Below are positions 28,617-57,909 of a stretch of 64,000 nt of DNA, piece after piece. Every line of letters begins with the position of its first letter. Positions within the stretch are counted from its first letter, which is position 1. Location of the stretch: positions 1 to 64,000 of IMG/VR virus record IMGVR_UViG_3300025112_000005; one strand, 5' to 3'. Origin of the DNA: a virus. A model generated the notes under the pieces. That model worked only from the letters and a program-made list of their open reading frames with translations, was not told where the DNA came from and made no database searches. The translations under genes and the position numbers were made by a program.

Positions 28617-28895
28617 ATGCCCGTCCGACACCTGAAGATCCGCAACTCCAAGCTCTACGGCACCCGCGTGTTCAACGTGGATGCCGAAGGTCGTGTGACC
28701 GCGGAGGACGGGAGCAACCCGACCCCCGTGGAGGCGGCGCGGTTCGCCACGATGGCCAATTACCACGTGACCCCCGACGACGCGGATGCGGCGGTAGAGC
28801 CGCACGCGACCAAGGCGCCCGAGCCCGAGCCCCCGAAGGCGAAGGCGAAAGACGCCCAGGCGCGTCCCCCGCGGCGGCGCAAGCGCAGCAAGTGA
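28617..28895 (+). CDS. Small hypothetical (virion-associated?) protein
   Basis: GGAGG RBS; stop overlaps the terminase start. Confidence 0.65.
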   Translation: MPVRHLKIRNSKLYGTRVFNVDAEGRVTAEDGSNPTPVEAARFATMANYHVTPDDADAAVEPHATKAPEPEPPKAKAKDAQARPPRRRKRSK

Positions 28896-41200: not shown

Positions 41201-42383
41201 GGGCGTCGGCGTCGACAAGGAGAAGAAGAAGCGCGACAAGAAGGGCAACGCGCCCCGCAGCTCCCACAAGTGGAAGGGCAGCGTGGAGGGCGCGGAGCGC
41301 AAGGGCGGCCCGGCTGTCCCCGCAGTGATCACCGAGGAGAAGCTGGCGGCCGACTTCGGCATCAAGCGCGGCGAGTACGGGCGCAGCATCGGGAGCACGG
41401 GGGAGCTGCACCTGCGCAAGTGCTACGAGGCGTTCACGGATCTGGCGGACCTGCTGGGGCTCGACGCGCCCCAGATGGGGAACGGCGGCGAGCTGGCGAT
41501 GGCGTTCGGCGCACGCGGGCGCGGCGGAGCCCGAGCGCACTACGAGACGGTGCGGAAGGTGATCAACATCACCAAGATGGCGGCGGGGTCGTTGGCTCAC
41601 GAGTGGGGGCATTACCTGGACGACCTGATGGGGGGGGCGGGGCTGACCGAGGTGAAGGGGCGGACGCAAGCGCAGTTCGCCAGCCACGGCCCCGAGCAGT
41701 ACGCCGAGGCGCTGGACCCGAAGCTCAAAGAGGCGATGATGGCGGTGCGCGCGGCCATTTTGAGCAAGGACCCGGAGGCGTCGCGACTTCGTGACAAGGC
41801 GCTGGAAAAGGCCCGGGGGCTGCACAGAGAAGCGCGCGAAGCATTCGACCAGCTCCGTGCGCTGTCGTACGGGGAGAAGCAAGGGGAGAAGGGTAGGGCG
41901 TTAGGACTGAAGCGCGAAGAGCTTCGGGTGCAGGCGGCGGCGGCGGACAGGGTGGCGGCGCAGCTCAAGGAGAAGGCGGAGAAGCCGAGCAAGTACGCGG
42001 CGGACGCCAAGAAGCTGGGCGGCTATTGGGAGCGCCCGCACGAGATGTTCGCGCGCGCGTTCGAGTCGTTCATTGAGGATTCGCTGGTCGAGCGCGGGCG
42101 TGTGTCCGACTACCTCGTGCAAGGGACCAAGCCGCTGCGCGACCTGTGGAAGAAGACCAAGGAGAAGGAAGGCCCGTTGTGGGACCGCACCGAGGTGGAG
42201 AAGAAGCACGAGGCGCTGGAGCCGTATCCGCAAGGGGATGAGCGGACGCGGATCAACACGGCGATGCGCGAGCTGGTGGAGGCGCTGAAGGGCTCGGATC
42301 ACTTGCGCAAAGGCTTGACCAGCTACGTCTATGGAAGCATCTTCGGCCAGATGGTGGCTGACCGACTGCTGGGGGTTACGTGA
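38208..42383 (+). CDS. Giant modular protein 3: LPD5/LPD1 large polyvalent protein with zincin motif
   Basis: DWGEKIGGAAKD; AFTDLADLLG...LAMAFGARG.G.ARAHYE...INITK..AGSLAHEWGHYLD; YW.RPHEMFARAFE; PYPQGDER. Confidence 0.85.
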   Translation: MSGGRVYREREAEGQLGLFGQMVQQAKQKKPPAPRPPSPKPSAPRPPAGYHPAPRSRKSGWTDGHGHYWYATGQHNHASGGEEHPEAEEMENDRAIDLHDDQIHEELNNGRSSQLRRRKLNREKRLRASAEERRQAAEKPKIGRVEHPKPEEPKRGRDELVEDVDVQSYPHKRGAKHYVRGASRDAVLVRLREMGASEGQIEWGREGTREGAYLGRYVGEWNELTPKPEEPKRGRDELVETAEEPQPEPPEAPGEPPPQVEPPEPEKEGESGWEEWRKKHPEHTDAERFHRAEAQRTGSATHEQAAHAHQTARRIGGYHKARAWDMSRLAFDEKPKPLVEEPPEPEAPKAEDADLTHAKQLMRDHMTRAEEYRKHDGAEEVVRAHSAAAVLWSRVAIGDADRGDAIDATAAAGKAELAYTATPPAGPVEPPREEPPAPLPPPKGMPLPDPYRIRTAGEYARLPVGSVVEKKGGGVYVKTPQGGWVHQHPDTGLHDSGGGPGGETKVLDEKEGLLSLVSHAQVLPDVVHIPVPGKTSEDAHRVGAFLLSEEGREALASRGVRASGMSLGPGNSMIFVHRTHEKRPADPPSGVDTHAGAVKAARYADGALRIPIPAHEGGAKAGAKALGMWLMGAEGRAALVAQADQLDVVPNLRKIRIQNGEMAILARPLTEAELKQRRDAAKKRTRGPTTGGGAARGIDRTREAALAARGQDGKTVAAQVEKDERDWGEKIGGAAKDRWDAVHSRNLGAMEEEEGAEFAHKHVTKARVLGSHDPEHDKALGSTPGASLIKRELFKKVAPRPENSPGHRSNYVAGCDWLAKMMDVLHHEDDVASFLEDWKTVAVEGTERDVDAKTFADLRETLGIVLWNRMHVIDHHAAPGRWRKFSAQGQWWALPATEAPGGSFKVLHHEGEFTPREQAEWLVAEPKRRDELRALKKSRGSWALHRRTQDTERLQRYARALGGSFNTQLTNSTSGNKDSALWVRVKQARAGSTAWEDLGVGVDKEKKKRDKKGNAPRSSHKWKGSVEGAERKGGPAVPAVITEEKLAADFGIKRGEYGRSIGSTGELHLRKCYEAFTDLADLLGLDAPQMGNGGELAMAFGARGRGGARAHYETVRKVINITKMAAGSLAHEWGHYLDDLMGGAGLTEVKGRTQAQFASHGPEQYAEALDPKLKEAMMAVRAAILSKDPEASRLRDKALEKARGLHREAREAFDQLRALSYGEKQGEKGRALGLKREELRVQAAAADRVAAQLKEKAEKPSKYAADAKKLGGYWERPHEMFARAFESFIEDSLVERGRVSDYLVQGTKPLRDLWKKTKEKEGPLWDRTEVEKKHEALEPYPQGDERTRINTAMRELVEALKGSDHLRKGLTSYVYGSIFGQMVADRLLGVT
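38649..38927. repeat. 45-bp direct repeats flanking a 189-bp in-frame insert
   Basis: ccgaagcccgaggagcccaagcgcggacgcgacgagctggtggag at 38649-38693 and 38883-38927. Confidence 0.95.
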
Positions 42384-44119
42384 GCTGGTGGGACCGCCTA
42401 CGGGGGCGTGAGCCGGCGCCCTTGGTGGGCAGCGAGGCGTTCACGGACGCGATGGTGGCGATGGCGGTTGACGCGCTGGCAAAGGCGCAGTCGTTGGAGC
42501 CCAAGGGGAAGGCCCCCGAGCCCCAGGCGCACGATATCGACCCGTGGGACGTGTACGCCGCGGTGGGCGATGAGGGGATGCTGGGCCAGCAGCACCTTGG
42601 CACCGCGGGGCTGGACTACACCACGCTCATGTCGATGGCGCGGGTGCCCACGATCGCGGGCATCATCCAAACGCGGGTGAACCAGATCGGGGAATTCGCG
42701 TGGCCCGCGTACGAGGAGGGCTCGCTGGGCTTCCAGATGCGGCTCCGCGACCGGGAGAAGACCCCGACCAAGGCACAGCAGAAGCGCATCCACGAGCTGA
42801 CGGATTGGATGGTGAGCTGCGGCGACGAGCGTATCGGCTTCGAGCTGAACATGGAGAGTTTCCTACGGATGCTCATGCGCGACTCGCTGACCTACGATCA
42901 GGCGACGTTCGAGGTGGTGCGCACGAAGGGCAAGGACGTGGCGGGGTTCGTGCTCGTGGACGCGTCCACGGTGCGCCGTGCGATCCCGACCGAGGAGGAG
43001 CGCGACGCGGGGATCCGGCGCAAGGACGACCAGATCGCGTTTGTGCAGATCTTGGGCGACGAGGTGGTGGCCGAGTGGACGGCGCGGGACCTTGCCTTCT
43101 GCGTGCGGCGCCCGCGGTCGGCAATCGCGATCCAGGGGTACGGCTACCCCGAGCTGGAAGACCTGATCCGGGTGATCACCAGCATCCTGCACGGCGAGAC
43201 CTACAACGCGAACAACTTCACGCACGGGATGCACACGGCGGGGATTCTGGCTCTCAAGAGCAAGATGAACCCGAAGATGTTCCGAGCGTTCCGGCGCGAG
43301 TTCTATGCGCTGATGAGCGGTGCGTACAACGCCAAGAAGACGCCAATCGTACAGCTCGACCCGGACGCGAAAGAGGAGCTGCAAGCTATCAACTTGAGCC
43401 AGTCCAACCGGGATATGGAATTCAAGGAGTGGATGGCATACCTCCAGAAAGTCGCGTGCTCGATCTACCAGATCGACCCCGCCGAGCTGGGCTTCGTCCA
43501 CGGGGCGGAGAACCAGACCGGCGCGCTCTCCCAAGGCGGCCCCGAAGCGCGCATCACTGCGTCGAAAGAGAAGGGGCTGCGCCCGCTGTTGCGTGGCGCC
43601 CAGGTGTGGCTCAACCGCTGGGTCGTGTCCCAGGTAGACCCGGACTTCGAGCTGGTTTTCGTCGGGCTCGACAAGGCCCGGCAAGATGCGCAGTTCGAGG
43701 CGGACCTGAAGCGGCTCAAGGGTTTTATGACGCCCAACGAAATTCGCGCGCGCTACGACCTGAAGCCCATTCCGCCCGAAGTCGACGGCGGCGCGGCCGA
43801 CATGATTCTGGATTCGTCGTACATGAACACGGCGATGCAGCTCCGCCAGATGGCCCAGATGGACGAGGAGGGCGGCGAGGAGCCCGGGGGCGGCGGGGGC
43901 GAGGAGCAGGGCGACGAGTCACAGGGCGAGGAGCCCGGCGAAGAGACCGATGCGTCGCAGGGCTGGGACATGGACGACGACGACGTGGACCTGGACGCGC
44001 TGTTCGGTGGACCCCAAGGCGATGAGCCCGACGACGACGACGACGACGACGAGGACGAGGACGAGGACGACGACGACGACGACGAGGACAAGGTGAAGAA
44101 GGCGCTGGTGGAGGTCTAG
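42380..44119 (+). CDS. Portal protein
   Basis: IIQTRVNQI, RDSLTYDQ, GYGYPELE, DMEFKEW, YQIDPAELGF, SKEKGLRPLL, TPNEIR; very acidic tail. Confidence 0.93.
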   Translation: MSWWDRLRGREPAPLVGSEAFTDAMVAMAVDALAKAQSLEPKGKAPEPQAHDIDPWDVYAAVGDEGMLGQQHLGTAGLDYTTLMSMARVPTIAGIIQTRVNQIGEFAWPAYEEGSLGFQMRLRDREKTPTKAQQKRIHELTDWMVSCGDERIGFELNMESFLRMLMRDSLTYDQATFEVVRTKGKDVAGFVLVDASTVRRAIPTEEERDAGIRRKDDQIAFVQILGDEVVAEWTARDLAFCVRRPRSAIAIQGYGYPELEDLIRVITSILHGETYNANNFTHGMHTAGILALKSKMNPKMFRAFRREFYALMSGAYNAKKTPIVQLDPDAKEELQAINLSQSNRDMEFKEWMAYLQKVACSIYQIDPAELGFVHGAENQTGALSQGGPEARITASKEKGLRPLLRGAQVWLNRWVVSQVDPDFELVFVGLDKARQDAQFEADLKRLKGFMTPNEIRARYDLKPIPPEVDGGAADMILDSSYMNTAMQLRQMAQMDEEGGEEPGGGGGEEQGDESQGEEPGEETDASQGWDMDDDDVDLDALFGGPQGDEPDDDDDDDEDEDEDDDDDDEDKVKKALVEV

Positions 44120-46593
44120 TGCTCGACCGCATCCTGGGAGAGCTGGAGAACCACGAGCGGTGGGCGCGGTGGCACGAGGGCACGCGCCGGGGCGACTGGC
44201 ACCAGCGGCAGATCCAACGCATCACCGAGCGACTGGCCAAGTGCGAACGGCGCCCCGTAACCGGCGCCCCCTTCCACGACATGCTCGCCAAGGCGCGAGC
44301 GCACAAGTACATCCGGCGCGTGCCCAAGCCGGGCGGGGGCTACCGCTACTTCTACGACGTGGCGGGGGCTCGCGGGCTCGCGCACAATGATGAGCTGGTC
44401 GAGGGCGCGAAGTTCAAGCACGAGGGCGGGCACATCGAGGTTGTCGCCCAGCACGGTGACCGGGTGCAGATCCGGCACGACGAGTCGGGCGAGACCCTGA
44501 CCGTTGACCGGGAGGAGCTGCGCCAGAAGCTCCACGAGTACCACGCGGAGAGCATCGCCGAGCACAAAGAGAAGACGCGGCGCAGCCTGGAGGAGACGGG
44601 CCGCCACGGGAGCGAACGGCAGAAGGCCCGCGAGGAGAAGAGGGCCGCCCGGTACGCGTATTGGGATGCTCCCGCGGTGCGGGCGCTGCTGTACCCCAAG
44701 CCCGCGGGGCTGGAGCATGAGCCCGCGCGCTCCAAGCCCGTTCACGTCGTCCCGTACAGCCAGATTGACCGCACCTGGGAGCGTGATATCCCCGCGCTGG
44801 CGAAGGCGGGGCTGAAGACGTACGACGACCTGCACAAAGCCGGGCCGGACAAGATCGCCGCGGTGCTGGGGCGGGGGCGGCGAGACGCCGCGCAGCAGCT
44901 TTGGCGCACGGCGGACATGCGCAGCGGGTCGAGCAAGGCGCGCGCGAAGAAGCTGCACGAGACCGACCACCCCGATTGGGTGCCGGATCTGAGTCAGTAC
45001 GACGTGATTCTGGTGAACACGTCCGGGGGCAAAGACTCCCAGGCGATGATGGACCGGACGCTGGAGCTGGTCGATTCGCAGGGCATCGACCGAGCCAAGG
45101 TGGTCGCCGTACACGCCGACCTGGGGCGCGTCGAGTGGGAGGGCACCAAAGAGCTGGCCCAGGCGCAGAGCGACCACTACGGCATTCGCATGGAAGTGGT
45201 GAAGCGCCAGAAGAACGACCTGCTTCAGCACATCGAGCAGCGGTACTACCAGCTCACGAACCGGATCGCGGACACCAAGGCGCTGGGCGGGCTGGAGACC
45301 TGGGGCGACCTGTACGACATGCTCCCCGAGCCGAAGGGGAAAGGCGCCGCGGAGGAGCGGCGTTGGAAGGCGGAGAAGGCGGCACTGGCAGAGCAGATCG
45401 CCGCGCGGCTCCCCGATGCGCACACCGATTTTTGGCCGCCCGACTTCGAGGGCAACCCGAGCCTGCACCACACCGTCGACAAGCTGATCCGTGCGAAGTA
45501 CATCGTGGACAGCGCGGTGAGGAATCGGAACGCGGCTACCAAGTGGGCGGCCAAGAGCGAGAAGGCCAAGGCGAAGGACAAGCGGCCGAAGCTGGCGGGG
45601 GATTCGCTGGATTGGGGGATGCCGAACCCCTGGCCGGACAGCGGGGCGCGGTTCTGCACTAGCGAGCACAAGCGCGCCAGCATCCGAGCGCTGATCACGA
45701 ATCTGGTGACGGCGCACAAGAAGGCCAACCCCGGCACGGGCAAGCCGCGCATCCTCAACACGATGGGGTTGCGTGCGCAGGAGTCGAGCGAGCGCGCAAA
45801 TAAGCTGCTGTTCGAGCACGACAAGGACACCAGCTCCGGCGCGCGGTCGGTGGACACGTACTTGCCGATCAGTGGGTGGTCCGAAGAGGAGGTGTGGGAC
45901 CGAATCCGTGAATCGGGCGTTCCGCACCACGTCGCCTATGAGCTGGGGATGCGGCGGCTGTCGTGCGTGTTCTGCGTGTTCGCGGACGGGCACGACCTGC
46001 TGACCGCGGCGGCCAACAACCCCAACCTGTTCAAGCAATACGTGGAGCTGGAGAGGCGCTCCGGGTTCACGTACCAGCAAGGCAAGTTCGCCAAGGAAGA
46101 CGCGGCGAAGATGGCGGAGTCACACCCCGCGTACGCGTCGTTGGCGGGGAAGCCCAAGAGCTTCGCGGCGGTCGACGAGGCGCTGAAGACGTTCGCGGCG
46201 GAGAACCCCGAGGGGTTCCGCGTGATGCAGCAGATCGCCGAAAAGAAGAAGGAACAGCACGCGGTGCTGGGGCTGGTCGCCAGCGACGACCTACGGGCGC
46301 TTCTGAAGGCGCTGGGCGTCGATGACGACGACGGTACGCACACCCTGCTGTCGGCGCTGCACCACAACCTCGCGCAGCTCCGCAAGGCGGGGATGAAGGT
46401 GCACGCGGTGCAGTACGATTACCGCCCCAGCGGCGCGGTGGTGCAGCTCGACACGGAGCACGACTCGTTCTTCTGCGGCTCGCTCCCCTACCCAGAAGCC
46501 TACGCAGGAAGCACCGCAGCGGCTATCATGGCGCGGGCCGCGGGACTCGACTACGAGGAGCACGGTAGCCCCGATCAGCAGGAGGCGGTGTGA
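44119..46593 (+). CDS. Giant modular protein 4: PAPS-reductase-like (PP-loop) domain
   Basis: SGGKDS, HADLG..EW, WP...RFCTSEHK, GLRAQES..R, LPI..W.E.EVW, RLSCVFC; N-terminal LAKA + KYIRRVPKPGGGYRYFY tag. Confidence 0.88.
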   Translation: MLDRILGELENHERWARWHEGTRRGDWHQRQIQRITERLAKCERRPVTGAPFHDMLAKARAHKYIRRVPKPGGGYRYFYDVAGARGLAHNDELVEGAKFKHEGGHIEVVAQHGDRVQIRHDESGETLTVDREELRQKLHEYHAESIAEHKEKTRRSLEETGRHGSERQKAREEKRAARYAYWDAPAVRALLYPKPAGLEHEPARSKPVHVVPYSQIDRTWERDIPALAKAGLKTYDDLHKAGPDKIAAVLGRGRRDAAQQLWRTADMRSGSSKARAKKLHETDHPDWVPDLSQYDVILVNTSGGKDSQAMMDRTLELVDSQGIDRAKVVAVHADLGRVEWEGTKELAQAQSDHYGIRMEVVKRQKNDLLQHIEQRYYQLTNRIADTKALGGLETWGDLYDMLPEPKGKGAAEERRWKAEKAALAEQIAARLPDAHTDFWPPDFEGNPSLHHTVDKLIRAKYIVDSAVRNRNAATKWAAKSEKAKAKDKRPKLAGDSLDWGMPNPWPDSGARFCTSEHKRASIRALITNLVTAHKKANPGTGKPRILNTMGLRAQESSERANKLLFEHDKDTSSGARSVDTYLPISGWSEEEVWDRIRESGVPHHVAYELGMRRLSCVFCVFADGHDLLTAAANNPNLFKQYVELERRSGFTYQQGKFAKEDAAKMAESHPAYASLAGKPKSFAAVDEALKTFAAENPEGFRVMQQIAEKKKEQHAVLGLVASDDLRALLKALGVDDDDGTHTLLSALHHNLAQLRKAGMKVHAVQYDYRPSGAVVQLDTEHDSFFCGSLPYPEAYAGSTAAAIMARAAGLDYEEHGSPDQQEAV

Positions 46594-49500
46594 GCCAGCT
46601 CGGACTCTTCAGCCACGTGGTCCAACAGGCGACGGCGAAGCCGAAGCCGAAGCCGAAGCCGAAGCCCGGGGGACACCACCACCCGCCCCCCGGCTACCAC
46701 CCCGCGCCCCGGAGCCGTAAGGGCGGCTGGACGGACGGCAAAAACTACTGGTACCCCGGCGATCCGCACCCGAAGCCCCGGGCGGCGGCAGCCGAGCCCG
46801 AGCCCACTCCGACACCGCACCCGGAGCCCGTGGCGCCTACGACACCCCCGGAGCAGGCCACCGTGTTCGGGGGCGAGCACAGCAGCGTCACGCAGGAGCC
46901 CGAGGAGACACCCGCGCCGACGGAGCCGACCCCCGCGGTGGTGGTTGAGCCCGCGGCCGAGCCCGAGCACGCCAAGCCTGACGAGCTGTGGGCAGACGAA
47001 GACGACGATTTTGACGACCCCGACGGCGACGGCTTCGATCTGTGGGACCTGATGGCCGAGGAGGGCGTGGCAGCGCCCGAGGAGCACGAGGCGGAGCTAC
47101 TACACCCCGACTGGTCGGCGGAGCCGAGCGAGCGCCCCCAGGGGCAGGCGGAGCTGGTGGGCGAGGAGGAGGAGCCCGCGGAGGAGCCCGCGGAGGAGCC
47201 CGCGGAGGAGCCGGGGACCGAGCAGGAGACTGAAGCCGACGACATGGCGCGTCGGATGCAGGAGCGGTTGAAGGAACGCGCGGCGCAAGAAGGCGCGGAG
47301 CGCGAAGCCCGTGTGGCGGCGGAAGAAGCGCAGCTCGCCGAAGAGCTGCGGCTGGCGTCCTTCGCGTATGGCTACGAGGTGCCCCAGCACGCGGTGCTGC
47401 CCCGGGAGCTGGACGAGAAGGCCCGTTACCGGCTGTGGGTGAAGGACGGCGACGCGTGGACGCGTGTCGATGAGCCGGAGGGGGTGTTTCGGCACAAAGG
47501 GGGGATGTTCCGAGGCGCTTGGGTGCGTCCCGTATGGGACCGGACGCTTGAGGCGTACGAAGGGCAGTCCCCCGTCTTCATGCCCAGCGACCGCGTTCCG
47601 GCGTCGGAGGCGTTGGGCGCGCTGATCAAGATCGGGGAGCACGAGGTCAGTCCCGACCGACCGCCGAATTTCCTGGGGTTGATCCCCGAGAAGCTGGTGC
47701 GTCGGCGCCTTGTCACGGTGGAAGACGAGGACGGGAAGCCCGTACGGGACGAAGATGGCCGGTTGGTCCAGAAAGAGGGCGCGCTGGCGGGCGCGGGTGC
47801 GTCCCGGCAATACCGGGATTACTACAGCGGCAACCTCGTTTGGGCGCACGACAACATCCAGTCCCAGGATTGCACGGACACGTGGCTGATCGAGTCGGGG
47901 TTCTACGACGCGGTGCAGGGTCCGGCGACGGGGACCGACCGGCATGGCGAGCCGATCAGCCTGTCCGACCAGCAGCGCGACCGGCGGCTGGCGGTGCTGC
48001 ACAGCAACGTCCAGGGCATCGACTGGCTGAAGCTGCGGGAGCAGAAGCACGTCAAGATCTGGGAGAAGACGCAGCGCGATTTGACGGCGTGGTGGACCAA
48101 CATCACCAACGAGCAGCGCGAGCACTTCTGGACGAACTACTGCCACCGGGACAAGCAGAACACGCTGGCGAAGACTGCGGATCCGCGCCATGAGCTGGCG
48201 GAGTTCGCCGTGCCGAAGGGCATGGAGAAGATGTCGGCGCTGCGGGGTCCCTACTGGCGGGAAGACGCCACGACCTGGGCAGACGCAGAGCACACGATCC
48301 CGTGGCACGACCGGGACCCCGACAACCCCAAGCACGGCAAGCCGTGGGACTTCCACGTCTACCAGAAGAAGGCGGCCAACTTCGTCGTGGACCATGCGCC
48401 GCGTTCCATCCTCGCGATGGAGATGGGGCTGGGCAAGACCCTAACCGCGCTGGGCGCGTTCCACGAGCTGAAGCAGCGCGGCGAAATCGACCAGATGATC
48501 GTAAGCGCCCCGGTGAGCGCGATGGGGAGCTGGGAAGAGCACTTCGGGGATCTGTCCGACGCGCGGGTGGGCATCGCGAACGGATCCAAGAAGCAGAAAG
48601 AGCGGGTCGTCCAGCAGTTCGAGCGCGGCGAGCTGGACGTGTTGGTGGTGACCACGGACGCAATCGCCATCGACATGAAGAAGGCGAAGGAGCTGGACGA
48701 GGTTCCCAAGGGCGCCAACAAGGTGACCCTCAAGATGAAGGGGAGCTATCGAGGCGCGACCTGGGAGACTTCGTTTCTCCACCGACGGACGGACGGGGAG
48801 GGTTTCTCGATATTCCCTGATACGCGCAAGCTGGCGGGGTGGGATGACATGCGTATAAGCCTGGGCAATCCGCTGGGCTACCAGAAGCACGCGCATGACG
48901 AGGAGCGAAGGCGACAGAGCGGCGGTAAGAGCTACAGCAATGCTATGGCGGAGGCCCGTCGCGCGATCTTAGAGGAAGCGCCCGAAGGGGCCACTATGCA
49001 GACGTACGACGGCTACCTGCGCAAGATGGCTGACGGCACGTGGGCCGCACCGCGCGAAGATCGGGGCGGGTGGAAGGCCGGGAGGCGTACGTCTGATTCG
49101 ATCTGTGGGCGGGGGGATCTGACGGTCTGCTCTGCCCGACACTTGTCCGGCGAGGTGAAGCGCATTCAGCTGGATGCGGGGGATGTCAAGCTCGCGTACG
49201 AGAATCCCGAATCCAACAAGGCGCGTCTCCAGGCGATGATGGAGGCCAAGGGGAAGCGGACGCTGCGCGTTGCCGACGAGCTGCACAAGTTCAAGAACCC
49301 CAACAGCAACCGCGCCCGTGGCTTCTTTGACGTGTTCACCGAGCCCGAGGGGCGGGTGATCGGAATGACCGGCACGCCCAAGCCCAACGGGATGCAGGAC
49401 TTTTACACCATCATGGACCACGTGGCACCCGGCAGCCTGGGCGACACCTACGCCGATTTCTCGGAGCGGTACAGCTACCGTTACCGGGCGTTCGGGGCGG

Positions 49501-50555
49501 ACAAGGTGGCGGGGCTCCGGCCCGAGCAGTTGCCGAAGCTGTACGAGGACAGCGCGCACGTGATGTTCGTGCGGACCACCAACGACCCGGACAGCAAGAT
49601 CATCTTGCCCAAGCGCCGCGACCTGTCCCCGTCGATCCCCCTGTCCGATTTTCAGGAGAAGGTCACGACGGCCTTTGGCGAGTGGGTCGCGGTGAAGCGC
49701 GTGATCCAGATCCTCGGCAACCGGGAGAACCCCGGGCCGGAGTACGAGGCGGCCGTGGAGAAGCTGGCGGCGGCTGAGCGCGGAGACATGGGGAGCGTTG
49801 CCCAGGTGGCCGCGTCGGGGGCGCATACGGACGCGCAGGTAATGCTGATGCGTGCTCAGCAGCTTGCGATCAGCCCGTCGTTGCTGTCCCCCGCCTGGGG
49901 CGAGGCAAACCCGGGGTATGAGTCGCCGAAGACGAAGCTGGTGGCCGATTCGTTTCAAGAGCACATGAGCCAGCAGCCCAGCACGGGCGGCGTGATCTTC
50001 TGCACGTTCAACGACGGAATCGCGGAGATGCAGCGGGCGTTGGTCCGGCGCGGGTTCCGTGAAGACCAGATCGCCGTCTACAAAGGCGGCGTGACGCCCA
50101 AGAAGCGCGCGGAGATCCAGAAGAAGCTGAACAGCGGCGAGCTGAAGGTGGTGCTGGGCAACTCGGCGTCCCTACAGACCGGCGCAAACATGCAGAAACG
50201 CGCCAATTTTGTGGCGCACCTGTCGACCCCGTGGGCTCCCGACGCACTCACGCAGAGCACGGCGCGCGTGTACCGGCAGGGGCAGCAGAACGTCACCACG
50301 ATCCTGCGCCCCGTGGGGTCCGACGCGGAGGCGCTGGTGGAGCGGGTGGTCAGTCGCAAGCTAATGGAGGCGGGGCAGGCGACCGGCAAGACGATGGCGG
50401 CGGACAAGGCGGTGGCGGAGACTGTCCGCGGGGCCAAGCTGGACGCCGCATCAATCGCGAAGGTGCTGGGCATCGACCCCGCGAACTTCGGCAGCGAAGA
50501 GCTGACCGACGCGCTTCGTGAGGAGCTGGGCATGGAGCTTCCCGAGGAGGATTGA
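46590..50555 (+). CDS. Giant modular protein 5: SNF2-family helicase (DarB-like role)
   Basis: YQKKA, EMGLGKT, DELHKFKN, MTGTP, SPK, TGANMQ, PW.P, QSTARVYRQGQ; N-terminal QLGLF and GYHPAPRSRKGGWTDGKNYWY tag. Confidence 0.9.
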   Translation: MSQLGLFSHVVQQATAKPKPKPKPKPGGHHHPPPGYHPAPRSRKGGWTDGKNYWYPGDPHPKPRAAAAEPEPTPTPHPEPVAPTTPPEQATVFGGEHSSVTQEPEETPAPTEPTPAVVVEPAAEPEHAKPDELWADEDDDFDDPDGDGFDLWDLMAEEGVAAPEEHEAELLHPDWSAEPSERPQGQAELVGEEEEPAEEPAEEPAEEPGTEQETEADDMARRMQERLKERAAQEGAEREARVAAEEAQLAEELRLASFAYGYEVPQHAVLPRELDEKARYRLWVKDGDAWTRVDEPEGVFRHKGGMFRGAWVRPVWDRTLEAYEGQSPVFMPSDRVPASEALGALIKIGEHEVSPDRPPNFLGLIPEKLVRRRLVTVEDEDGKPVRDEDGRLVQKEGALAGAGASRQYRDYYSGNLVWAHDNIQSQDCTDTWLIESGFYDAVQGPATGTDRHGEPISLSDQQRDRRLAVLHSNVQGIDWLKLREQKHVKIWEKTQRDLTAWWTNITNEQREHFWTNYCHRDKQNTLAKTADPRHELAEFAVPKGMEKMSALRGPYWREDATTWADAEHTIPWHDRDPDNPKHGKPWDFHVYQKKAANFVVDHAPRSILAMEMGLGKTLTALGAFHELKQRGEIDQMIVSAPVSAMGSWEEHFGDLSDARVGIANGSKKQKERVVQQFERGELDVLVVTTDAIAIDMKKAKELDEVPKGANKVTLKMKGSYRGATWETSFLHRRTDGEGFSIFPDTRKLAGWDDMRISLGNPLGYQKHAHDEERRRQSGGKSYSNAMAEARRAILEEAPEGATMQTYDGYLRKMADGTWAAPREDRGGWKAGRRTSDSICGRGDLTVCSARHLSGEVKRIQLDAGDVKLAYENPESNKARLQAMMEAKGKRTLRVADELHKFKNPNSNRARGFFDVFTEPEGRVIGMTGTPKPNGMQDFYTIMDHVAPGSLGDTYADFSERYSYRYRAFGADKVAGLRPEQLPKLYEDSAHVMFVRTTNDPDSKIILPKRRDLSPSIPLSDFQEKVTTAFGEWVAVKRVIQILGNRENPGPEYEAAVEKLAAAERGDMGSVAQVAASGAHTDAQVMLMRAQQLAISPSLLSPAWGEANPGYESPKTKLVADSFQEHMSQQPSTGGVIFCTFNDGIAEMQRALVRRGFREDQIAVYKGGVTPKKRAEIQKKLNSGELKVVLGNSASLQTGANMQKRANFVAHLSTPWAPDALTQSTARVYRQGQQNVTTILRPVGSDAEALVERVVSRKLMEAGQATGKTMAADKAVAETVRGAKLDAASIAKVLGIDPANFGSEELTDALREELGMELPEED

Positions 50556-50556
50556 C

Positions 50557-50760
50557 ATGGACACAGATCTGACCCCCCAAGAGGCTACGGAGCTGCTTCG
50601 GATGCTCTGCCCCGTCGGCGGGATGAACCCCGCGGAGCCGGAGCCCGTGGAGCGCGCGCGGTTGTGCCGGCGCCTCTACGACCACATCAAGGCGGACAAC
50701 GGGCTGGTGCCCAACTGGCTCAAGCACGACGTGTCCAACATCGTCGGCCCCGCTGCGTGA
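50557..50760 (+). CDS. Small hypothetical protein
   Basis: GGAGG RBS; stop overlaps the next start. Confidence 0.55.
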   Translation: MDTDLTPQEATELLRMLCPVGGMNPAEPEPVERARLCRRLYDHIKADNGLVPNWLKHDVSNIVGPAA

Positions 50761-53700
50761 GCAGCGGACCCTTCATCGGCCCCCGGGGCGGGAAGTGGGC
50801 AGACGCCCAGCACACCGTCCCGTGGCATAGCTCCGAGGGGCGCGACCGGAGGCAGACCAGCCTGCTGGGCGCGGACGACGAGGGCACCAAGCGAAAGAAG
50901 CCCCTGCAACGACTGCGTGAGGGGGAGGTGATGGCGTTCCTCCAATCGCACGGGCACCGAGCGGGGAGCCATGCGGAACCGGGCGGTCACGGAGAGAGCG
51001 GGGTCCACACGCGCCAGCACTCCCGGCAGCAGGTCGAGGTGCGGCACGTCGAGTCACACCACCGGGACCACACGGGGCGCATCCAGCTCCCGGGGGGGGA
51101 GCACGAGGCTCTGAAGAAGCACGAGGCCCGCCAGCACGCCAAGGTGGTGGAGAAGCTGAAGGCTGCGGGGTATCACGTGCGCACGGACGCCGTGGGGCGG
51201 ACGCTGGTCGGTCGGCGAGGGGGAGCGCCCGAGCACGGCCCCCAGCGTGTGCAGGCGGCGAGGCCGAAGAAGAAGCTGGAGCTGGTGGTGGACAACACGC
51301 AGCCGGGGCTGTTCAAGTCGATGGTGGTCCGAGCGCTGTGCAAGGCGCAGGGAGGCCCTTTCATCGGCCCCCGCGGCGGCAAGTGGGCGAACGCCCAGCA
51401 CACGGTCCCGTGGAAGCCCAGCGGCGGGGTGTTGCGGGTGGACGCGGCCCTTGTCCGTGAGACTGTGGACGGGTGGTTTTCTGACTTGCGAGCGATGCCG
51501 GGACAATCCCGGTCGTCCATGATCGAGTACACCCAGGCGGACGGGGCAAAGCGTCGCGCGGTGGCACAGATCGTTGTAGAGGCGAGCACGGGCGATCCGC
51601 GAGGCGTGAAGGGCATCCACCATTACCGGACCACGGGGCAGGGGGGGATGCACAAGGTCGTTGTGCACATCAGTATGCGAAAGCTGGCGGGGAAGATTGA
51701 TACAGCCAAGGAGGCGGTGCGTTCCGTTCTTGCGCACGAGCTGACACACGCGGCCGACGTAGGGCTCCAGAAACGCGCAGAGCGACGCGCACGTGCTCAT
51801 TTCTCAGGGGACAGTAAGGGCGCCGAGCGTCTGAGGGCGAGGGACCATAGCGACGGGTCGGCCAACTACTTCAACCAACCGCATGAAGTCACAGCGAAGA
51901 TGCAGCAGATTCAGCGGGAGTTGTTGGACCCGGGTGTGGGGGGCGCGCTGGTCGAGGATGCAAAAAACCACGCGGACGACCCAGACAACCCGCCGCCGAT
52001 GACGCCCGCGCAACTGCTTGAGTGGGAGAGCCCCTCCTGGGGTGAGGTGAAAGAGCACTATACCCCCGAGAACAAGAAGCGTGTGCTGCGTATGGTGGCG
52101 AAAACCCATGCAGCGCTTTTGTCGGGAGAACTGGAGCCTGTGAAGAAGGCGGGGCCGTTCTCCTACATGGTGCTGGACGCGCTGGCGAAGGCCGCGAAGG
52201 GCGAGAGGCGGCAGGGCGCGAAGTACATTCGGCGCGTGCCCAAGCCCGGGGGCGGCTACCGCTACTACTACGCGGAAAGCAGCGCGGCGCGGTCGGCGAC
52301 CGAGGGCGAGGACGTGCGGCTGGGCGACAAGCTGACCCGGGTCCACAAGGTCCATGCGCACGGTATTGAGATCGAAGACGAGAAGGGCAAGCGCACAGTC
52401 TCGCACGACGAGTGGTCCCACATGCTGCACGAGCATTACGGCTCGCGCTTCTACGAGTGGGCAGAGAAGCGCGCGCGGCAGTACGCGGGCGCGGTGCTCA
52501 AGCACGTTCCCGCGGAGCTGTTCAACGAGCTGAAGGGCGAGACCGACGCCGAGCGCATGGCGGACCTGAAAACCCGGCTGCCCGACGTGCACGCGAAGCT
52601 GGAGAAGGCGTTTTCGCGCGCGGGCGTCAGTCCCGAGGATGCGCACCGCGCTATCTCGCACGTGCTGGAGCGCAAGGGGTGGACGGGCGGCGCCCGGCAA
52701 ACGCTCCTGGGGTCGATGCTCAACCGCGAGACGGCGTGGACCGTTCGGCACTACCGGAGGCTGAGCAAGGCCGCGGAGAACTTGGCGAAGGCCGACGGCG
52801 CGGAGCTGGTCGACCAGAAGCATGTTGCGGCGGCCATCGCGTTGCCGCGCACGGCGACGGCGATGGACCGCGTGGTCAACCGCGCGACGGCGGAGATGCA
52901 CCACATTCGCGCGGTGCTGAAGCTCCAGCTAACCCCGGGGGAGAAGAAGGAGGAGCAGGGCGCGCTGGCGCTGGACACGAAGATGTCCGCTGAGGCGCTG
53001 GCAAAAGTGCGCGCGGCGCACATGATCGGCCAGCTCTCTGTGATGGCTCAAGCGTTCCCGGGGCTGGCGTCGGATCCGGCCATGCAGCAGCTTCGTGTGC
53101 TGCTGGGCAGCCTTCAGTCCGTGGCTCCGCGCACGGAGCCGACGGCGAAGGGCGCGCAGACCACGGTGTACGTCGCGGGCGAATTCGGTTCCCCCGAGCC
53201 CATGACCGCGGAGTACGCGCTGGTCGACGCGGCCGAACTGACTGCGAGCCACGACCCCGTGACGTTCGCGCAGAACGAGGCGCACGACATCGGCAACGAG
53301 CGCGCGTATCACCGCGACAAGGCCGAGCGGGCGAAGGTGATCAAGAACGCCGAAGACCTGAAGCCGGATCTGGTGATCAACACCAACCCGGACGCGACCA
53401 ACGGCGCCCCCATCGTGGACGAAAACGGGGTGGTGTTGGGGGGCAACTCGCGCACCATGTCCATGCAGCGCGTTTACCGGATGGGAGGCGCCCAGGCGGC
53501 GGACCTGAAGGGGTACCTGAAGGGACAGGCGCGACAGTTCGGGTTCAAGCCCGGCGACGTGGAGGCGATGGCCCAGCCGATCCTCGTGCGGAAGGTCCAG
53601 CCCCACGACGACGACCACAAGCGGCTTCTGGTGCGCCAGCTCAACGAGACGTTCATGCAGGCGATGGATCCGCGCACGATGGCGGTCGCGCAGGCGGCGC

Positions 53701-55166
53701 GGCTGGACGACAAGGCGCTGGAGGCGCTGGCCACCGACATGGGGCCGGACAAGACGCTGGCGGCGTTCCTGGGGGCGAAGGCATCTGACGGGTTCGTGAA
53801 CCAGCTCAAGCGCGCGGGCGTGATCAGCGCCCAGAACCAGAACGCGTACATTCGCAAAAACGGGCGGCTCAACGAGAACGGCCGGCAGCTCGTGGAGAAC
53901 GTGCTGGTGGGGAAGGTCGTCGGCGACGCGGACCTGCTGGTGGACCTGCCCCAGCCGCTTGTTGGGGCGCTCGCGCGTGCCGTGCCGTACATGGTGCAGG
54001 CGGAAGGGGCAGGGGCGGCGTACAACATCCGTAGTGAGCTGAAGCACGCGCTGGAGGCGTACACCGACATCAAGAACCGGCCTGAGTTCGGCATCCCGAA
54101 GAGCAAGAAGGAAGCAGCGGCGGTGCTGGAGTCGTGGAAGCGACTCGGCGGAGGGCTCTTTGAGGGTCACGAGGTGTTCAAGAACCCGCGCAGCATGGCG
54201 ATCCTGAACACCCTGTTCACGCAAGCCGGCCCGCGGCAGATGGCCGCCGTGTTCCGCAAGTACGCGGAGGCGGCGGGGCATCAAGAGGCGGGTGGCGGCG
54301 AGGGGCTGGGCTTCTACGAGAAGAAGACCCCCGACGACGTGTTCGGAGAAGCGTTCGGCCGGGCGGAGGACGAAGAGGCGGCGCAGGAGAAGGCCAAGGC
54401 CGCGCGTGAGAAGCACGTGGAGGAGACCAAAGCAGAGGCCAAGAAGAAGGCCAAGGCGAAGGCGGAGCGCGAGGCCCAGAAGGAAGGGCCGCGAAAACTG
54501 TCTGACCTGCCCCACGTGAGAGACGACCCGTGGGACGATGGGACGACGGTTGTTTTTCGACAAAGCCCGTTCCCCAAAGGGGACAAGCCCGCTATTTCAA
54601 GCAAGCTGATCAGCTCCGCGAAGGTCGAAAGCGTGAAGCTGGCGGACCTTCAGGGCTCACAGACCGAGATCACAGAGGTCGGGGTAGAGAAGCACGCGAA
54701 GGCCCCCGACGCGACCACACCGACAAGCGAGCTACCCGTGGTTATTCGTACAGCGGACGGGAAGCACATTATTCAGGACGGGCACCACCGGCTTGCGGCG
54801 GCTGTTTTGCGGGGAGATAAAGACGCCCGTGTGCGCGTGGCGGTCGAGCCCGGTGCCAAAGAAGCGCCCGCGCCGAAGGTTGAGCCCGAGGCGCCCGCGG
54901 TCGATCACGCGGCCAAGGCCGAGGAGCACGACATCGCGGCGGAGAACATGCCCGGCAAGTACCCCGGGCACGCGTGGACGAGCACGAAGGAAGCGGCCCA
55001 GGACGCGCACACCGCGGCGGAGAAGGCGCACCAGAAGGCGCACGCGAGCCCGACCGCGGAGAACAAAGCAGCAGCAGCGGCGGCGACCAAGAAGGCCGAG
55101 GAAGCGGACGCGGCTTCGGAGAAGGAAGAGGCGGACGCGGCAGCGTCGCAGGGCGGGTTGTTCTGA
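50757..55166 (+). CDS. Giant modular protein 6: zincin + DdrB-like ParB + second ParB/Srx domain
   Basis: AHELTH...YFNQPHE; YALVDA.EL.ASHD...ER.Y...NGAPIVD..GVVLGGNSRTM; LPVV...IQDGHHR; GTG start 50757; C-terminal QGGLF. Confidence 0.85.
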   Translation: MSSGPFIGPRGGKWADAQHTVPWHSSEGRDRRQTSLLGADDEGTKRKKPLQRLREGEVMAFLQSHGHRAGSHAEPGGHGESGVHTRQHSRQQVEVRHVESHHRDHTGRIQLPGGEHEALKKHEARQHAKVVEKLKAAGYHVRTDAVGRTLVGRRGGAPEHGPQRVQAARPKKKLELVVDNTQPGLFKSMVVRALCKAQGGPFIGPRGGKWANAQHTVPWKPSGGVLRVDAALVRETVDGWFSDLRAMPGQSRSSMIEYTQADGAKRRAVAQIVVEASTGDPRGVKGIHHYRTTGQGGMHKVVVHISMRKLAGKIDTAKEAVRSVLAHELTHAADVGLQKRAERRARAHFSGDSKGAERLRARDHSDGSANYFNQPHEVTAKMQQIQRELLDPGVGGALVEDAKNHADDPDNPPPMTPAQLLEWESPSWGEVKEHYTPENKKRVLRMVAKTHAALLSGELEPVKKAGPFSYMVLDALAKAAKGERRQGAKYIRRVPKPGGGYRYYYAESSAARSATEGEDVRLGDKLTRVHKVHAHGIEIEDEKGKRTVSHDEWSHMLHEHYGSRFYEWAEKRARQYAGAVLKHVPAELFNELKGETDAERMADLKTRLPDVHAKLEKAFSRAGVSPEDAHRAISHVLERKGWTGGARQTLLGSMLNRETAWTVRHYRRLSKAAENLAKADGAELVDQKHVAAAIALPRTATAMDRVVNRATAEMHHIRAVLKLQLTPGEKKEEQGALALDTKMSAEALAKVRAAHMIGQLSVMAQAFPGLASDPAMQQLRVLLGSLQSVAPRTEPTAKGAQTTVYVAGEFGSPEPMTAEYALVDAAELTASHDPVTFAQNEAHDIGNERAYHRDKAERAKVIKNAEDLKPDLVINTNPDATNGAPIVDENGVVLGGNSRTMSMQRVYRMGGAQAADLKGYLKGQARQFGFKPGDVEAMAQPILVRKVQPHDDDHKRLLVRQLNETFMQAMDPRTMAVAQAARLDDKALEALATDMGPDKTLAAFLGAKASDGFVNQLKRAGVISAQNQNAYIRKNGRLNENGRQLVENVLVGKVVGDADLLVDLPQPLVGALARAVPYMVQAEGAGAAYNIRSELKHALEAYTDIKNRPEFGIPKSKKEAAAVLESWKRLGGGLFEGHEVFKNPRSMAILNTLFTQAGPRQMAAVFRKYAEAAGHQEAGGGEGLGFYEKKTPDDVFGEAFGRAEDEEAAQEKAKAAREKHVEETKAEAKKKAKAKAEREAQKEGPRKLSDLPHVRDDPWDDGTTVVFRQSPFPKGDKPAISSKLISSAKVESVKLADLQGSQTEITEVGVEKHAKAPDATTPTSELPVVIRTADGKHIIQDGHHRLAAAVLRGDKDARVRVAVEPGAKEAPAPKVEPEAPAVDHAAKAEEHDIAAENMPGKYPGHAWTSTKEAAQDAHTAAEKAHQKAHASPTAENKAAAAAATKKAEEADAASEKEEADAAASQGGLF

Positions 55167-55501
55167 TGCGGGTGGGACTGAGTGAGAGCTACCCCGGGGA
55201 GTTGGAGGAGCTGGGACCGCTGGGGGTCATGCAGAAGGCCGAGGCGGGGCTCCATGCAGCGCTGCGCGACCTGGGGCACCCCGAAGCCGCTGCTGCGCTG
55301 GCGGGGCGTCTGGATGCACTTCTCGACGCTGAGCGGGCGCTGACCGACGTGTACGAGGCGGGGGAGCTGCGAAAGGCGCTCCCACCGCGCGGGGGCGAGC
55401 TGGACGTGGTGCAGATGCTCGCCGACCGGATGGGGGGCGCGTACGACGCGATGGCCGCGCGCTTGGAGAAGCGGCTACGGGAAGCGGTCGACCGTGGCTG
55501 A
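55166..55501 (+). CDS. Small head-module protein
   Basis: ATG overlaps the upstream stop; contains MQKA and LRKA. Confidence 0.6.
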   Translation: MRVGLSESYPGELEELGPLGVMQKAEAGLHAALRDLGHPEAAAALAGRLDALLDAERALTDVYEAGELRKALPPRGGELDVVQMLADRMGGAYDAMAARLEKRLREAVDRG

Positions 55502-56534
55502 TGACACGTTGTCCCGCGTCGTGGCGGACCTGATCCGCGAGCATCACGAGGCGTTTCTGGTGGCGCTGCTGGGGCGGGACGCAAGCACCGTCCCCCCCGA
55601 GCGCATCGAGGAGCTGCTGGCGTCCGGCGCGCTCGACCCGCACGCCATCGGCCGCGTGCACGTGGCTGTGGGGGACGAGCACTTGAACCCCTACGAGTAC
55701 ATGCGGCTGGTCTCGCGGGCGTACGCCAAGCTGGGCGACGACGACGCGGTGGCGGCGCGGACGTGGGGTTTCTCCGATTGGGAGCCACACGTGATCCGCG
55801 AGCTGGAGAGCGCGCGGGCGGAAGACGTTCGCCCCGCCGAGGCGCGCGCGCACGTGACCGCGGCGCGTCCCGAGCCCCCCGACCTGGAAGCCGGCGCGGT
55901 TGAGCCCAAGGCGCCTGGGTGGATGACGCCCCAGGAGCGCGCCAGCCACCGTGAGGCGCTGCTCCGTGCCGGGTCGTATGCGCGTGGGCTGGGCAACGTC
56001 TACGCTGCGGACTTGAGCACGAAGGCGGAGACCTGGACGGGCGAGCAGATCGAGCAGGAAGCGAACGCACCGCAGCGCGCGCAGATGCAGCAGGTGATTC
56101 GGGAGCACGTGGCCGAGGCCATCGCGACCCACCGCGACCAGGAGAAGCTGGCCCGGGATCTGGCTGAAGCGACGGGGTTCTATTCGCACAACTGGCGGCG
56201 GATCGCGTCCACTGAGCTGCAAGGCGCCCACAACCTGGGCATGGTGGAGGCGGCGATCGACGCGCACGGCGAGGCGGGCCGCGTGGCACGCATCACCGAG
56301 TCGGGCGCGTGTGAGCACTGTCTGCGGTTGTTTCGAGACGCCGAGGGCAAGCCGCGAGTGTTCGAGGTTCGCGAACTATTGGAGAACGGGACCAACGTGG
56401 GGCGCAAGGCAGCTGCGTGGCTCCCGACGGCGTGGCCGGTGCATCCAAACTGCCGCTGTGACACGCGGATTGTACCGCCTGGGCGAACAGTCACCGCTGA
56501 TGGTAGGATCCGACGCGAGGAGACCGCGGCATGA
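55494..56534 (+). CDS. Minor head protein (MuF/SPP1 gp7 family)
   Basis: WRRIASTE, ACEHC, PVHPNCRC. Confidence 0.88.
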   Translation: MADDTLSRVVADLIREHHEAFLVALLGRDASTVPPERIEELLASGALDPHAIGRVHVAVGDEHLNPYEYMRLVSRAYAKLGDDDAVAARTWGFSDWEPHVIRELESARAEDVRPAEARAHVTAARPEPPDLEAGAVEPKAPGWMTPQERASHREALLRAGSYARGLGNVYAADLSTKAETWTGEQIEQEANAPQRAQMQQVIREHVAEAIATHRDQEKLARDLAEATGFYSHNWRRIASTELQGAHNLGMVEAAIDAHGEAGRVARITESGACEHCLRLFRDAEGKPRVFEVRELLENGTNVGRKAAAWLPTAWPVHPNCRCDTRIVPPGRTVTADGRIRREETAA

Positions 56535-57214
56535 GCTACGACACCCCCGACGACCTGGGCGACTTCCGCTTCTGGTCCCCCCTGCTGGTCAAGGCCGACA
56601 ACCCCAACGGCGGGTTTGGTGAGGTGGCGCTGGGGAAGATCGGCGGCGTGATCAGCTCCGACACCGTAGACTTTCAGGGCGAGACGCTGGACCAAGACGG
56701 CGTGGATTGGTCGTACTTCGAGGCTCACGGGCTCTTGAACTACAACCACACGGCGCTGATCCTGGGCGAGCCGACCGCGGTGATTCGCAAGGGCGGCCGA
56801 ACGCTGATGGAAGGCGTGCTGTACCTGCACCAGCCCAAGGCGCGCGAGGTCTACCAGACCGCCGTTGCGATGCGCAAAAGCGGTGCCCGGCGCAGCTACG
56901 GCTTCAGCGTCGAGGGCAAGGTGTTGGAGCGCGAGCAGGGGAACCCCACGAACGTCCGCCGCGCCCGGGTGATGAACGTGAGCGTGTGCGAGCACCCCGT
57001 GAATCCCGACGCGCGTATGACCTTGCGCAAGGCGCTGAGTGTGGGCTACCAGACCGCAGCAGGCATGGACGGCGGTTTCTCCCCGCTCGTGCCTCAGAGC
57101 TTGGAGGGCAGCGTGGCGCTGTCCACGTTCAAGCGGGAGCTGTTGGGTCAGTTTCCCCGCCTGACTGATGATGAATGTGACGCTGTGGCACGGCGAGTGC
57201 TTCACTTGCCTTGA
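56531..57214 (+). CDS. Prohead protease (HK97/U9 fold)
   Basis: GVISSDTVDFQGE, NYNH, GFSVEG, VSVCEHPVNP. Confidence 0.88.
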   Translation: MSYDTPDDLGDFRFWSPLLVKADNPNGGFGEVALGKIGGVISSDTVDFQGETLDQDGVDWSYFEAHGLLNYNHTALILGEPTAVIRKGGRTLMEGVLYLHQPKAREVYQTAVAMRKSGARRSYGFSVEGKVLEREQGNPTNVRRARVMNVSVCEHPVNPDARMTLRKALSVGYQTAAGMDGGFSPLVPQSLEGSVALSTFKRELLGQFPRLTDDECDAVARRVLHLP

Positions 57215-57276
57215 CCGCGGATCGCGACCCGGTGAGAATACCGACGTGGGGTGACCCCCCCGAGGAGACGACGAAG

Positions 57277-57909
57277 ATGCAGACGCGAGACCAGATCATC
57301 GCGGCGCTCCGTACCGCGGGGGCCGACGAAGAGACAATCAGCAAGGCGCTGGCCGAGCTGGAGCCGACCACCCCCGAGAACGACGCGCTGGGCAAGAGCC
57401 TGGGCGACCTGCGTGCCGCGTTCGACCGCGAGCACGCCGGACGCGACGAGGATCTGGCCAAGAGCCTGGACGAAGCCGCCGATCTGGTGGACGCCGTTAC
57501 GAAGGGCTCCGACCTGATCCTGGCCGAATTCCGCGCGCAGAACGACGCGCTGGCCAAAGGGATGGTGGCGCTCATCAACACGTCCCGCGACGAGCGCGCC
57601 GAACTGCGTTCGCTGATCGAAGAGGTCCGCGAGCTTCGGCAGGATCGCGAGGAGCAGGACGAGCGCATCGCCAAGGCGCTCTCCGTCCCCCAGGAGCCCC
57701 GTGGGCTCTCCGGGGCCACGCCCGTCCCCACGCCGTCCGAGCGCGTCCTTGGAGGCGCCCCGGAGGCGGGCGACCTGATCAACAAGGCGCTGACCGAGCT
57801 TCAGAGCGCCGACGAGCCCCGCAAGCGGGAGCTTTCGACGGCGATTTCGCGCCTTAACTCCGGCTTCGCTGCGCACGCGGTGGCCCAGGAGTTTGGGTTG
57901 AGCGCCTGA
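57277..57909 (+). CDS. Capsid scaffolding protein
   Basis: Acidic coiled coil between protease and capsid genes; seven [LIV]xK[ASG] sites. Confidence 0.8.
   Translation: MQTRDQIIAALRTAGADEETISKALAELEPTTPENDALGKSLGDLRAAFDREHAGRDEDLAKSLDEAADLVDAVTKGSDLILAEFRAQNDALAKGMVALINTSRDERAELRSLIEEVRELRQDREEQDERIAKALSVPQEPRGLSGATPVPTPSERVLGGAPEAGDLINKALTELQSADEPRKRELSTAISRLNSGFAAHAVAQEFGLSA

Follow-up and report, generated by a model that had tools for sequence, protein, structure and literature searches.

A conserved basic hairpin module in polyvalent phage proteins as a candidate cut-and-anchor junction for capsid cargo

The IMG/VR virus record IMGVR_UViG_3300025112_000005 is an 80,205-bp phage genome. 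Its first 64 kb, a stretch of 64,000 nucleotides referred to here as the window, encode two large proteins with different cargo domains which share a 17-residue peptide, tag A. Tag A is read here as the hairpin of a portable header module which would serve as a cut-and-anchor junction for proteins carried in the capsid; the chances that this reading is correct are judged to be about even. Such a junction, with its proposed docking and cleavage steps, would be a new version of the capsid targeting seen in phages T4 and P1, and this is considered the best reading of the data. The module itself is part of no named family and represents a large unnamed family of 878 clusters. The last ~133 bases of the record (80073–80205) repeat the first ~133 (window 1–133), and because the ends overlap in this way the genome is taken to be assembled closed, or circular, and complete.

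The two copies of tag A lie in an 824-amino-acid (aa) open reading frame (ORF) and in a 1500-aa ORF, whose relevant features are as follows.

44119–46593, plus strand: 824-aa cargo ORF directly 3' of the portal gene, with an N-terminal leader, the tag A module and a PAPS-reductase/PP-loop enzyme
44269–44298, plus strand: leader helix ending LAK/A (LAKA at 44284–44295; the slash marks a predicted cut), a predicted head-protease site with an invariant Lys
44305–44355, plus strand: tag A copy 1, KYIRRVPKPGGGYRYFY, a basic Tyr-rich β-hairpin, residues 63–79 of the 824-aa ORF
44410–44508, plus strand: predicted SH3/Tudor-like small β-barrel of module 1 (predicted local distance difference test score, pLDDT, >90), with invariant His105 and His120-Asp121-Glu122
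44509–44658, plus strand: two basic helices closing module 1, with a conserved G-[ST]-x-K-Q turn, from the model and the alignment
50664–55166, plus strand: ddrB-ParB polyvalent ORF, 1500 aa, with a PF18763 match
52182–52193, plus strand: LAKA before copy 2, a predicted protease site
52221–52271, plus strand: tag A copy 2, KYIRRVPKPGGGYRYYY, residues 520–536 of the 1500-aa ORF
52272–52478, plus strand: type-2 module continuation (ESSAAR..EGED.., small β region, LHEHYG), identified by BLASTP (E 2e-11) and alignment A3 and found in relatives P0010, P0011, L015 and L022
53202–53597, plus strand: ddrB-like ParB domain, the cargo after copy 2 (PF18763 at aa 847–978, E 4.8e-21)

The cargo of the 824-aa ORF matches PAPS_reduct (PF01507) at aa 548–619 with an E value of 1.5e-13, and phrog_424 with an E value of 4.6e-32. 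The 1500-aa ORF, which probably starts at GTG 50757 and so overlaps the upstream stop as GTGA, holds two copies of a second hairpin tag, tag B, besides its one tag A and the ddrB-ParB domain.

The string KYIRRVPKPGGGYRY[FY]Y occurs only twice in the six frames of the entire 80,205-bp genome. Both copies were found where a preliminary description, made from the letters of the window, had placed them, in the two ORFs it had named and with 16 of the 17 residues identical. It had further proposed selection on the peptide. The 51-base DNA copies agree at 46 bases, and their differences are four synonymous changes and one F/Y change; the same codon is used in 12 of the 16 shared residues against 9.0 expected from the codon usage of the genome (P ~0.08). 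Since codon sharing is near this expectation, the tag is conserved as a peptide and shows no trace of a recent DNA copy made from one site to the other, an origin which was considered and rejected. The loosely similar text that had been noticed after each tag proved to be true homology, as the two ORFs align by BLASTP with 36% identity over 138 aa (E 2e-11). The statement that each copy stands just after LAKA is accurate for copy 1, where five residues separate the Lys from the Tyr of the tag, but needs amending for copy 2, where there are 11 (LAK-AAKGERRQGAK-Y); this longer spacing is a variant which is also present in relatives.

Tag A is the core of a longer motif, L-x-K-[GA]-x-G-H-K-Y-[ILV]-[RK]-R-V-P, followed by a loop of 6–14 residues and [YW]-R-Y-[FY]-Y. 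With positions counted from the first Tyr, the consensus reads L(-8) x K(-6) [GA] A G H(-2) K Y(0) [ILV] [RK] R V P, loop, [YW] R Y [FY] Y, and the second strand is often followed by x-V-[TS]-G-G-x-G-[LV]-G-H. Among 192 instances from 156 proteins, conservation reaches 92% for Lys(-6), 94% for His(-2), 100% for Tyr(0), 96% for Arg(+3) and 89% for Pro(+5), values which are upper estimates, inflated by the selection of the instances with a profile that contained the motif. The string h-x-K-[AGST] lies exactly five residues ahead of the Tyr in 177 of these 192 instances.

The module in which the tag stands is ~130 residues long and has no family name. Searched against 1.84 billion representatives, its profile matches 878 clusters with a cutoff of E<=1e-3 and 658 with the stricter cutoff of E<=1e-10. 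Up to four copies occur in one protein, module proteins reach 3,608 residues, and 82 of the 192 instances begin at residue 100 or beyond. The fusion partners include ddrB-ParB, LPD1, InPase, ART-PolyVal, SNF2, a Strawberry-notch-type helicase, methyltransferase, PAPS reductase and sometimes MuF; relatives with up to four modules in a protein combine them with SNF2, methyltransferase, LPD1 or ParB. No Pfam family covers the tag or the module even at E<=10 (a chance Myosin_N match has an E value of 0.2), and there is no match in PHROGs or NCBIfam. The best match among PDB sequences has an E value of 0.23, the ESM Atlas gave no usable match for the module, and the sole significant structural match in BFVD is another unnamed DdrB-like protein from an uncultured phage. 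No true match was found by tblastn with one module version in 72,556 plasmids, a search in which the low-complexity filter may mask part of the tag. A pattern scan of prokaryotes, with one genome per species for 185,579 species, gave nine matches, none of them confirmed, and full-text literature searches with the motif strings of both hairpin tags returned nothing relevant.

The structure of the module was predicted as a single chain with AlphaFold2 from 40 aligned modules (mean pLDDT 81.5), an earlier model having used 16 sequences. From its N-terminus, the model shows a leader helix that ends at the Lys, the hairpin with its two strands, a short linker, a small barrel of five strands and finally two helices. 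The leader helix (model residues 21–30) is poorly defined, with a pLDDT of ~55, while the strands of the tag hairpin fall at residues 36–39 and 45–48 with pLDDT values of 83–91. The barrel is tentatively described as SH3/Tudor-like, its matches being weak: the best has a Z of 6.2 (BAHCC1 Tudor, root-mean-square deviation 1.9 over 53 residues), a level which is common among unrelated small barrels, and Foldseek E values are 0.16 or higher. Fold searches with both models gave nothing beyond such weak matches, to Tudor, PWWP, SH3, KOW and CarD-type barrels and to generic helical hairpins. Mean net charges are +5.9 for the hairpin, -1.8 for the barrel, +3.2 for the helices and +7.3 for the entire module.

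The leader Lys is invariant across the 40 aligned modules. In type-1 modules, the class of copy 1 (alignment A4), His32, His75, His90-Asp91-Glu92 and His112 are invariant together with Lys28, and this His/Asp/Glu set may form a metal site which ties the hairpin to the barrel and helix. In the 824-aa ORF, His62 (44302), His105 (44431), His120-Asp121-Glu122 (44476–44484) and His142 (44542) are invariant in 40 type-1 modules and are not found in the type-2 copy.

At least three different continuations follow the hairpin. Type 1, with the His/Asp/Glu set, follows copy 1; type 2, homologous to module 1 without its His cluster, follows copy 2 and accompanies ParB cargo; and type 3 is a helical continuation with DEDKY as its first residues. 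Hairpins with no continuation exist too, one of them at the extreme C-terminus of P0012. Because it is shared by the three continuations and the hairpin-alone cases, the hairpin is regarded as their common denominator.

The tagged ORFs of this genome sit among its head genes, which are listed here.

28370–30613: terminase
42380–44119, plus strand: portal protein with a long acidic C-terminal tail, then VKK/A and a short hydrophobic end (PF04860, E 3.2e-20)
55494–56534, plus strand: MuF-like minor head protein (phrog_115)
56531–57214, plus strand: head maturation protease (phrog_1028, E 7e-31), its C-terminus repeating the capsid N-arm after LRK/A
57211–57909, plus strand: scaffold-like protein, with 7 of 9 Lys within h-x-K-[AGS]
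57955–59397, plus strand: major capsid protein of an SPO1 gp6.1-like lineage (phrog_752, E 4e-58; 9vel_C, E 3.3e-23), with LRK24/A25 ahead of a conserved N-arm

The capsid protein is at most 27% identical to its cultured relatives. The linkage of tag and head genes extends well beyond this phage, as 18 of 26 tag-bearing viral loci have homologues of its portal, MuF, protease, capsid or terminase genes within 10 kb. In all five of the larger viral records, the 3–6 modules share a strand and surround the portal gene at positions upstream of the capsid gene, and four module-bearing proteins begin with a fused MuF head-protein domain. The preliminary description had named the lack of linkage between homologues and virion genes as one of two findings that would overturn its proposal, and on this point the loci, records and fusions do not refute it. 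Its proposal itself, a capsid- or DNA-binding packaging module, is partly supported: it agrees with this linkage and with the strongly basic character of the module, but the peptide is more than a free tag, being placed with confidence as part of a folded domain in the AlphaFold2 model of type 1, the main module type. Judged from sequence, the strong basic charge fits the binding either of DNA or of acidic interior parts.

The portal tail (43850–44119) is a stretch of ~90 residues, extremely acidic and with long Asp/Glu runs, followed by VKK/A and five hydrophobic residues. Ten portal homologues share the same plan of an acidic tail, h-x-K-[AS] and a short hydrophobic end.

The preliminary description had missed that the Lys upstream of tag A is invariant and coincides with the likely head-protease site. 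This Lys fits h-x-K/[AGS], and the same motif is found at the presumed maturation border of the capsid protein, in the scaffold and in the protease, where a head-protease site would be expected to recur. In the scaffold-like protein it holds 7 of 9 Lys residues where 0.4 are expected (none of 300 shuffles reached 7), and in the protease it holds 4 of 8, where 0.6 are expected. The giant ORFs contain the motif without overall enrichment, and there it falls at the tags. In the capsid protein, LRK24/A25 precedes the conserved N-arm (..VGYQT.., ..LVPQS..), an arrangement of LRK/A and N-arm which is repeated, for capsid and protease alike, in loci L009, L014 and L003. An unrelated tag B that is common in relatives (GPFIGPRGGKW..HTIPW) has h-x-K-[AG] 2–4 residues ahead in 13 of 15 cases. 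Its presence ahead of this unrelated tag as well argues that the Lys motif is a functional site common to both tags and not a piece of a single fold. Head proteases cut after Lys in HK97-like maturation, and the simplest reading of the sequence pattern is that the Lys motif is a putative cut site of the head protease. Published work on Felix O1 and Bc431v3 gave nothing usable on the capsid cleavage site of SPO1-like heads.

Two observations concern the same head proteins. The counterpart of the scaffold in L014 has eight such sites and a long acidic run. The C-terminus of the protease (57000–57130) nearly copies the capsid N-arm (57955–58120) after an LRK/A of its own (..SVGYQTAAG.. ..FSPLVPQS..), and this copy, by mimicking the capsid arm, may serve to bring the protease into the procapsid and dock it there.

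In the proposed mechanism, the header module consists of an amphipathic leader helix, h-x-K/[GA]-x-G-H-K, the basic Tyr-rich hairpin, the predicted SH3/Tudor-like barrel and two basic helices, and it stands ahead of effector or enzyme units in polyvalent proteins encoded among head genes. The tagged giant proteins would be built into the procapsid, where the head protease would cut after the Lys of h-x-K/[AGS], just ahead of each hairpin, dividing them into units which each start with a hairpin module. The basic module would then tether each unit to the packaged DNA, to acidic components of the interior (the portal tail or the scaffold, for example) or to both, so that units would remain in the head until infection and exit together with the DNA. 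We infer these loading, cutting and anchoring steps from a set of observed features: the motif, the size of the family, the predicted fold, the fusion partners and the head-gene linkage. A wider form of the proposal is put forward more tentatively, with rather less than even confidence: that the module is a universal portable cassette of one large lineage, such that any enzyme behind it would be loaded into the procapsid, released by head-protease cleavage at the Lys site, retained on the packaged DNA through the basic hairpin domain and injected with the genome.

Several points weigh against the cut-and-anchor junction. Cleavage after Lys is deduced solely from motif statistics, and the conservation figures of the 192 instances are, as stated, upper estimates. 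Whereas the T4 signal is removed, the predicted cut would leave the hairpin on the product. There are stand-alone modules with no cargo, such as P0068 (165 aa) and P0100 (216 aa). In 50,697 records of cultured phages, tblastn with three module versions gave no true match, again with a low-complexity filter that may mask part of the tag. The deeper alignment places the hairpin confidently inside a compact domain, so that it may be no more than a pair of structural strands. In 10 of 30 multi-copy proteins, the copies have loops of different length. Finally, portals and capsid proteins diverge to ~30% identity, yet the strands of the hairpin are almost invariant, a pattern more easily reconciled with a constant ligand, for instance DNA, than with a capsid pocket that co-evolves. 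The idea that the hairpin loop co-varies with the head proteins of each genome is not supported, as loops vary within those same 10 of 30 proteins.

The main rival explanation, although on balance an unlikely one, is that the module is a nucleic-acid- or host-factor-binding domain which acts after injection, keeping the effector on the incoming phage DNA or bound to host machinery, for instance RNA polymerase. In that case the hairpin would be only the first two strands of the module, with no role in capsid loading. This would suit the weak fold matches (Tudor, PWWP with single-stranded DNA, CarD, the C-terminal Tudor domain of UvrD, and KOW), the positive charge of the module, the confident placement of the hairpin in the domain model, the near-invariance of its strands across divergent head lineages and the presence of stand-alone modules. 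It leaves unexplained, however, why an invariant Lys motif lies at a fixed distance from the hairpin and is common to the other hairpin tag, and why hairpins without a barrel exist at the C-terminus of P0012, with the DEDKY-type continuation and in L017–L021. In addition, the barrel itself is acidic and all of the fold matches fall below Z 6.5. The fixed distance between Lys and hairpin, together with the occurrence of two different hairpin tags directly after the same kind of site, would also be expected if the hairpin were an exosite which presents the adjoining K/[GA] bond to the head protease and whose sole role is correct cutting of the polyprotein. There is only a slim chance of this, since no hairpin follows the candidate sites of the scaffold, the capsid protein or the protease, so that a site can exist without one, and since N-terminal copies with leaders of 8–13 residues would gain little from being cut.

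Cleavage might instead be carried out by the module, if type 1 were a self-cutting domain acting at its own N-terminal K/G through the invariant His, Asp and Glu residues. The invariance of His32, His75, His90-Asp91-Glu92, His112 and Lys28 in alignment A4 is consistent with such activity. Nevertheless, the Lys motif and hairpin are kept without the His cluster in the type-2 copy (from 52221) and in its relatives, a dedicated head protease whose putative sites share the motif is encoded nearby, and no protease fold appears among the structure matches; self-cutting is therefore considered quite improbable. Least credible is a role for the tag as a DNA-level joint for recombination, in which modules would be swapped at the tag and conservation of the peptide would be a by-product. 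The tag does lie at module borders of mosaic proteins with many partners, but this explanation is largely refuted by the codon identity given above, which is not above that expected from codon usage; moreover, low-GC relatives keep the peptide with other codons and the flanking DNA is not conserved.

The cut-and-anchor junction can be compared with four known systems. Packaging and injection have been predicted for the polyvalent proteins of phages and conjugative elements (Iyer, Burroughs, Anand, de Souza, Aravind 2017, PMC5512222). The tagged proteins resemble them in that one large polypeptide holds several unrelated effector or enzyme domains, in that their genes lie in a portal/terminase/MuF head neighbourhood, and in a shared domain vocabulary of ddrB-ParB, LPD1, InPase, ART-PolyVal and SNF2 (PMC5512222). 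They differ in that neither an LPD model (LPD1–39) nor any other Pfam model covers the module, which is found only in viral sequence and not in plasmids. Terms for short, peptide or conserved motifs were looked for in the text of that paper, without a match (PMC5512222).

The capsid targeting sequence of T4 has ~10 residues, lies at the N-terminus before a head-protease cut after Glu, and is removed; it loads unrelated proteins, namely the internal proteins and Alt, into the procapsid (PMC9024508). Tag A would similarly be a short signal beside a head-protease cut site, here a predicted one. Unlike the T4 signal, the hairpin comes after the Lys site, would be kept on the product, is often internal and repeated, and leads a domain predicted to be folded. 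The T4 pattern of an extreme N-terminal position and removal is thus not the one seen here, with 82 of 192 instances at residue 100 or beyond and the hairpin on the product side of the predicted cut. No sequence relationship between tag A and the T4 capsid targeting sequence was found. In P1, the first 30 DarB residues suffice to direct a reporter to the capsid, a consensus signal shared by the Dar proteins was not found by the authors, and the capsid protein is cut after Glu120 (PMC9024508); DarA-Hdf lies on the inner capsid face and touches DNA (PMC12810830). The likeness to P1 lies in features of its Dar system: an anti-restriction head cargo, which includes the ddrB-ParB relative DdrB, and interior proteins which contact both capsid and DNA. 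The putative cut differs in coming after Lys rather than Glu120, and the module was without a tblastn match in the cultured-phage records. The size and topology of the predicted barrel and helix, and the basic character of the module, recall small SH3/Tudor/PWWP barrels that bind nucleic acids or RNA polymerase; the best Z is only 6.2, the best Foldseek E value is 0.16 and there is no sequence family match.

The way in which phages select proteins for packing is known for only a few model phages, whose signals are short and weakly conserved. The motif described here is sharply conserved and marks out different enzyme units by the hundred in uncultured phages. If this motif is the loading and anchoring signal, virion cargo, likely to consist of anti-defence enzymes, could be predicted directly from metagenomic sequence, the division of giant polyvalent proteins into working units would be explained, and a defined tag would be available for putting foreign proteins into phage heads. 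A cut-and-anchor cassette, if true, would be a natural plug-in system by which many different proteins are delivered to bacteria, and the conservation of its signal would greatly exceed that of the T4 and P1 signals. Even if the module is merely a DNA-binding domain, a large unnamed family of this size deserves a profile of its own.

Other tags and motifs occur in the large ORFs of the window. Tag B, GPFIGPRGGKWA[DN]AQHTVPW, is found at 50757–50825 and 51336–51413 in the ParB ORF, and with the probable GTG start at 50757 its first copy lies at residue 4. Within 38208–38400 and 46590–46740, the LPD1 and SNF2 giant ORFs have in common an N-terminal QLGLF motif, which is like a sliding-clamp-binding motif, and a third tag, GYHPAPRSRK[SG]GWTDG..YWY. 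A 1320-aa ORF contains two copies (30867–30944 and 32463–32537) of the repeat L[IV]KA-x(3-4)-Y-[HR]-G-K-G-..-P-G-x-Y-x-Y-x-Y-D. The plan of this repeat is that of tag A, with a Lys site, a basic strand, a Gly turn and a Tyr-x-Tyr-x-Tyr strand, and by its sequence it may be a distant variant of tag A.

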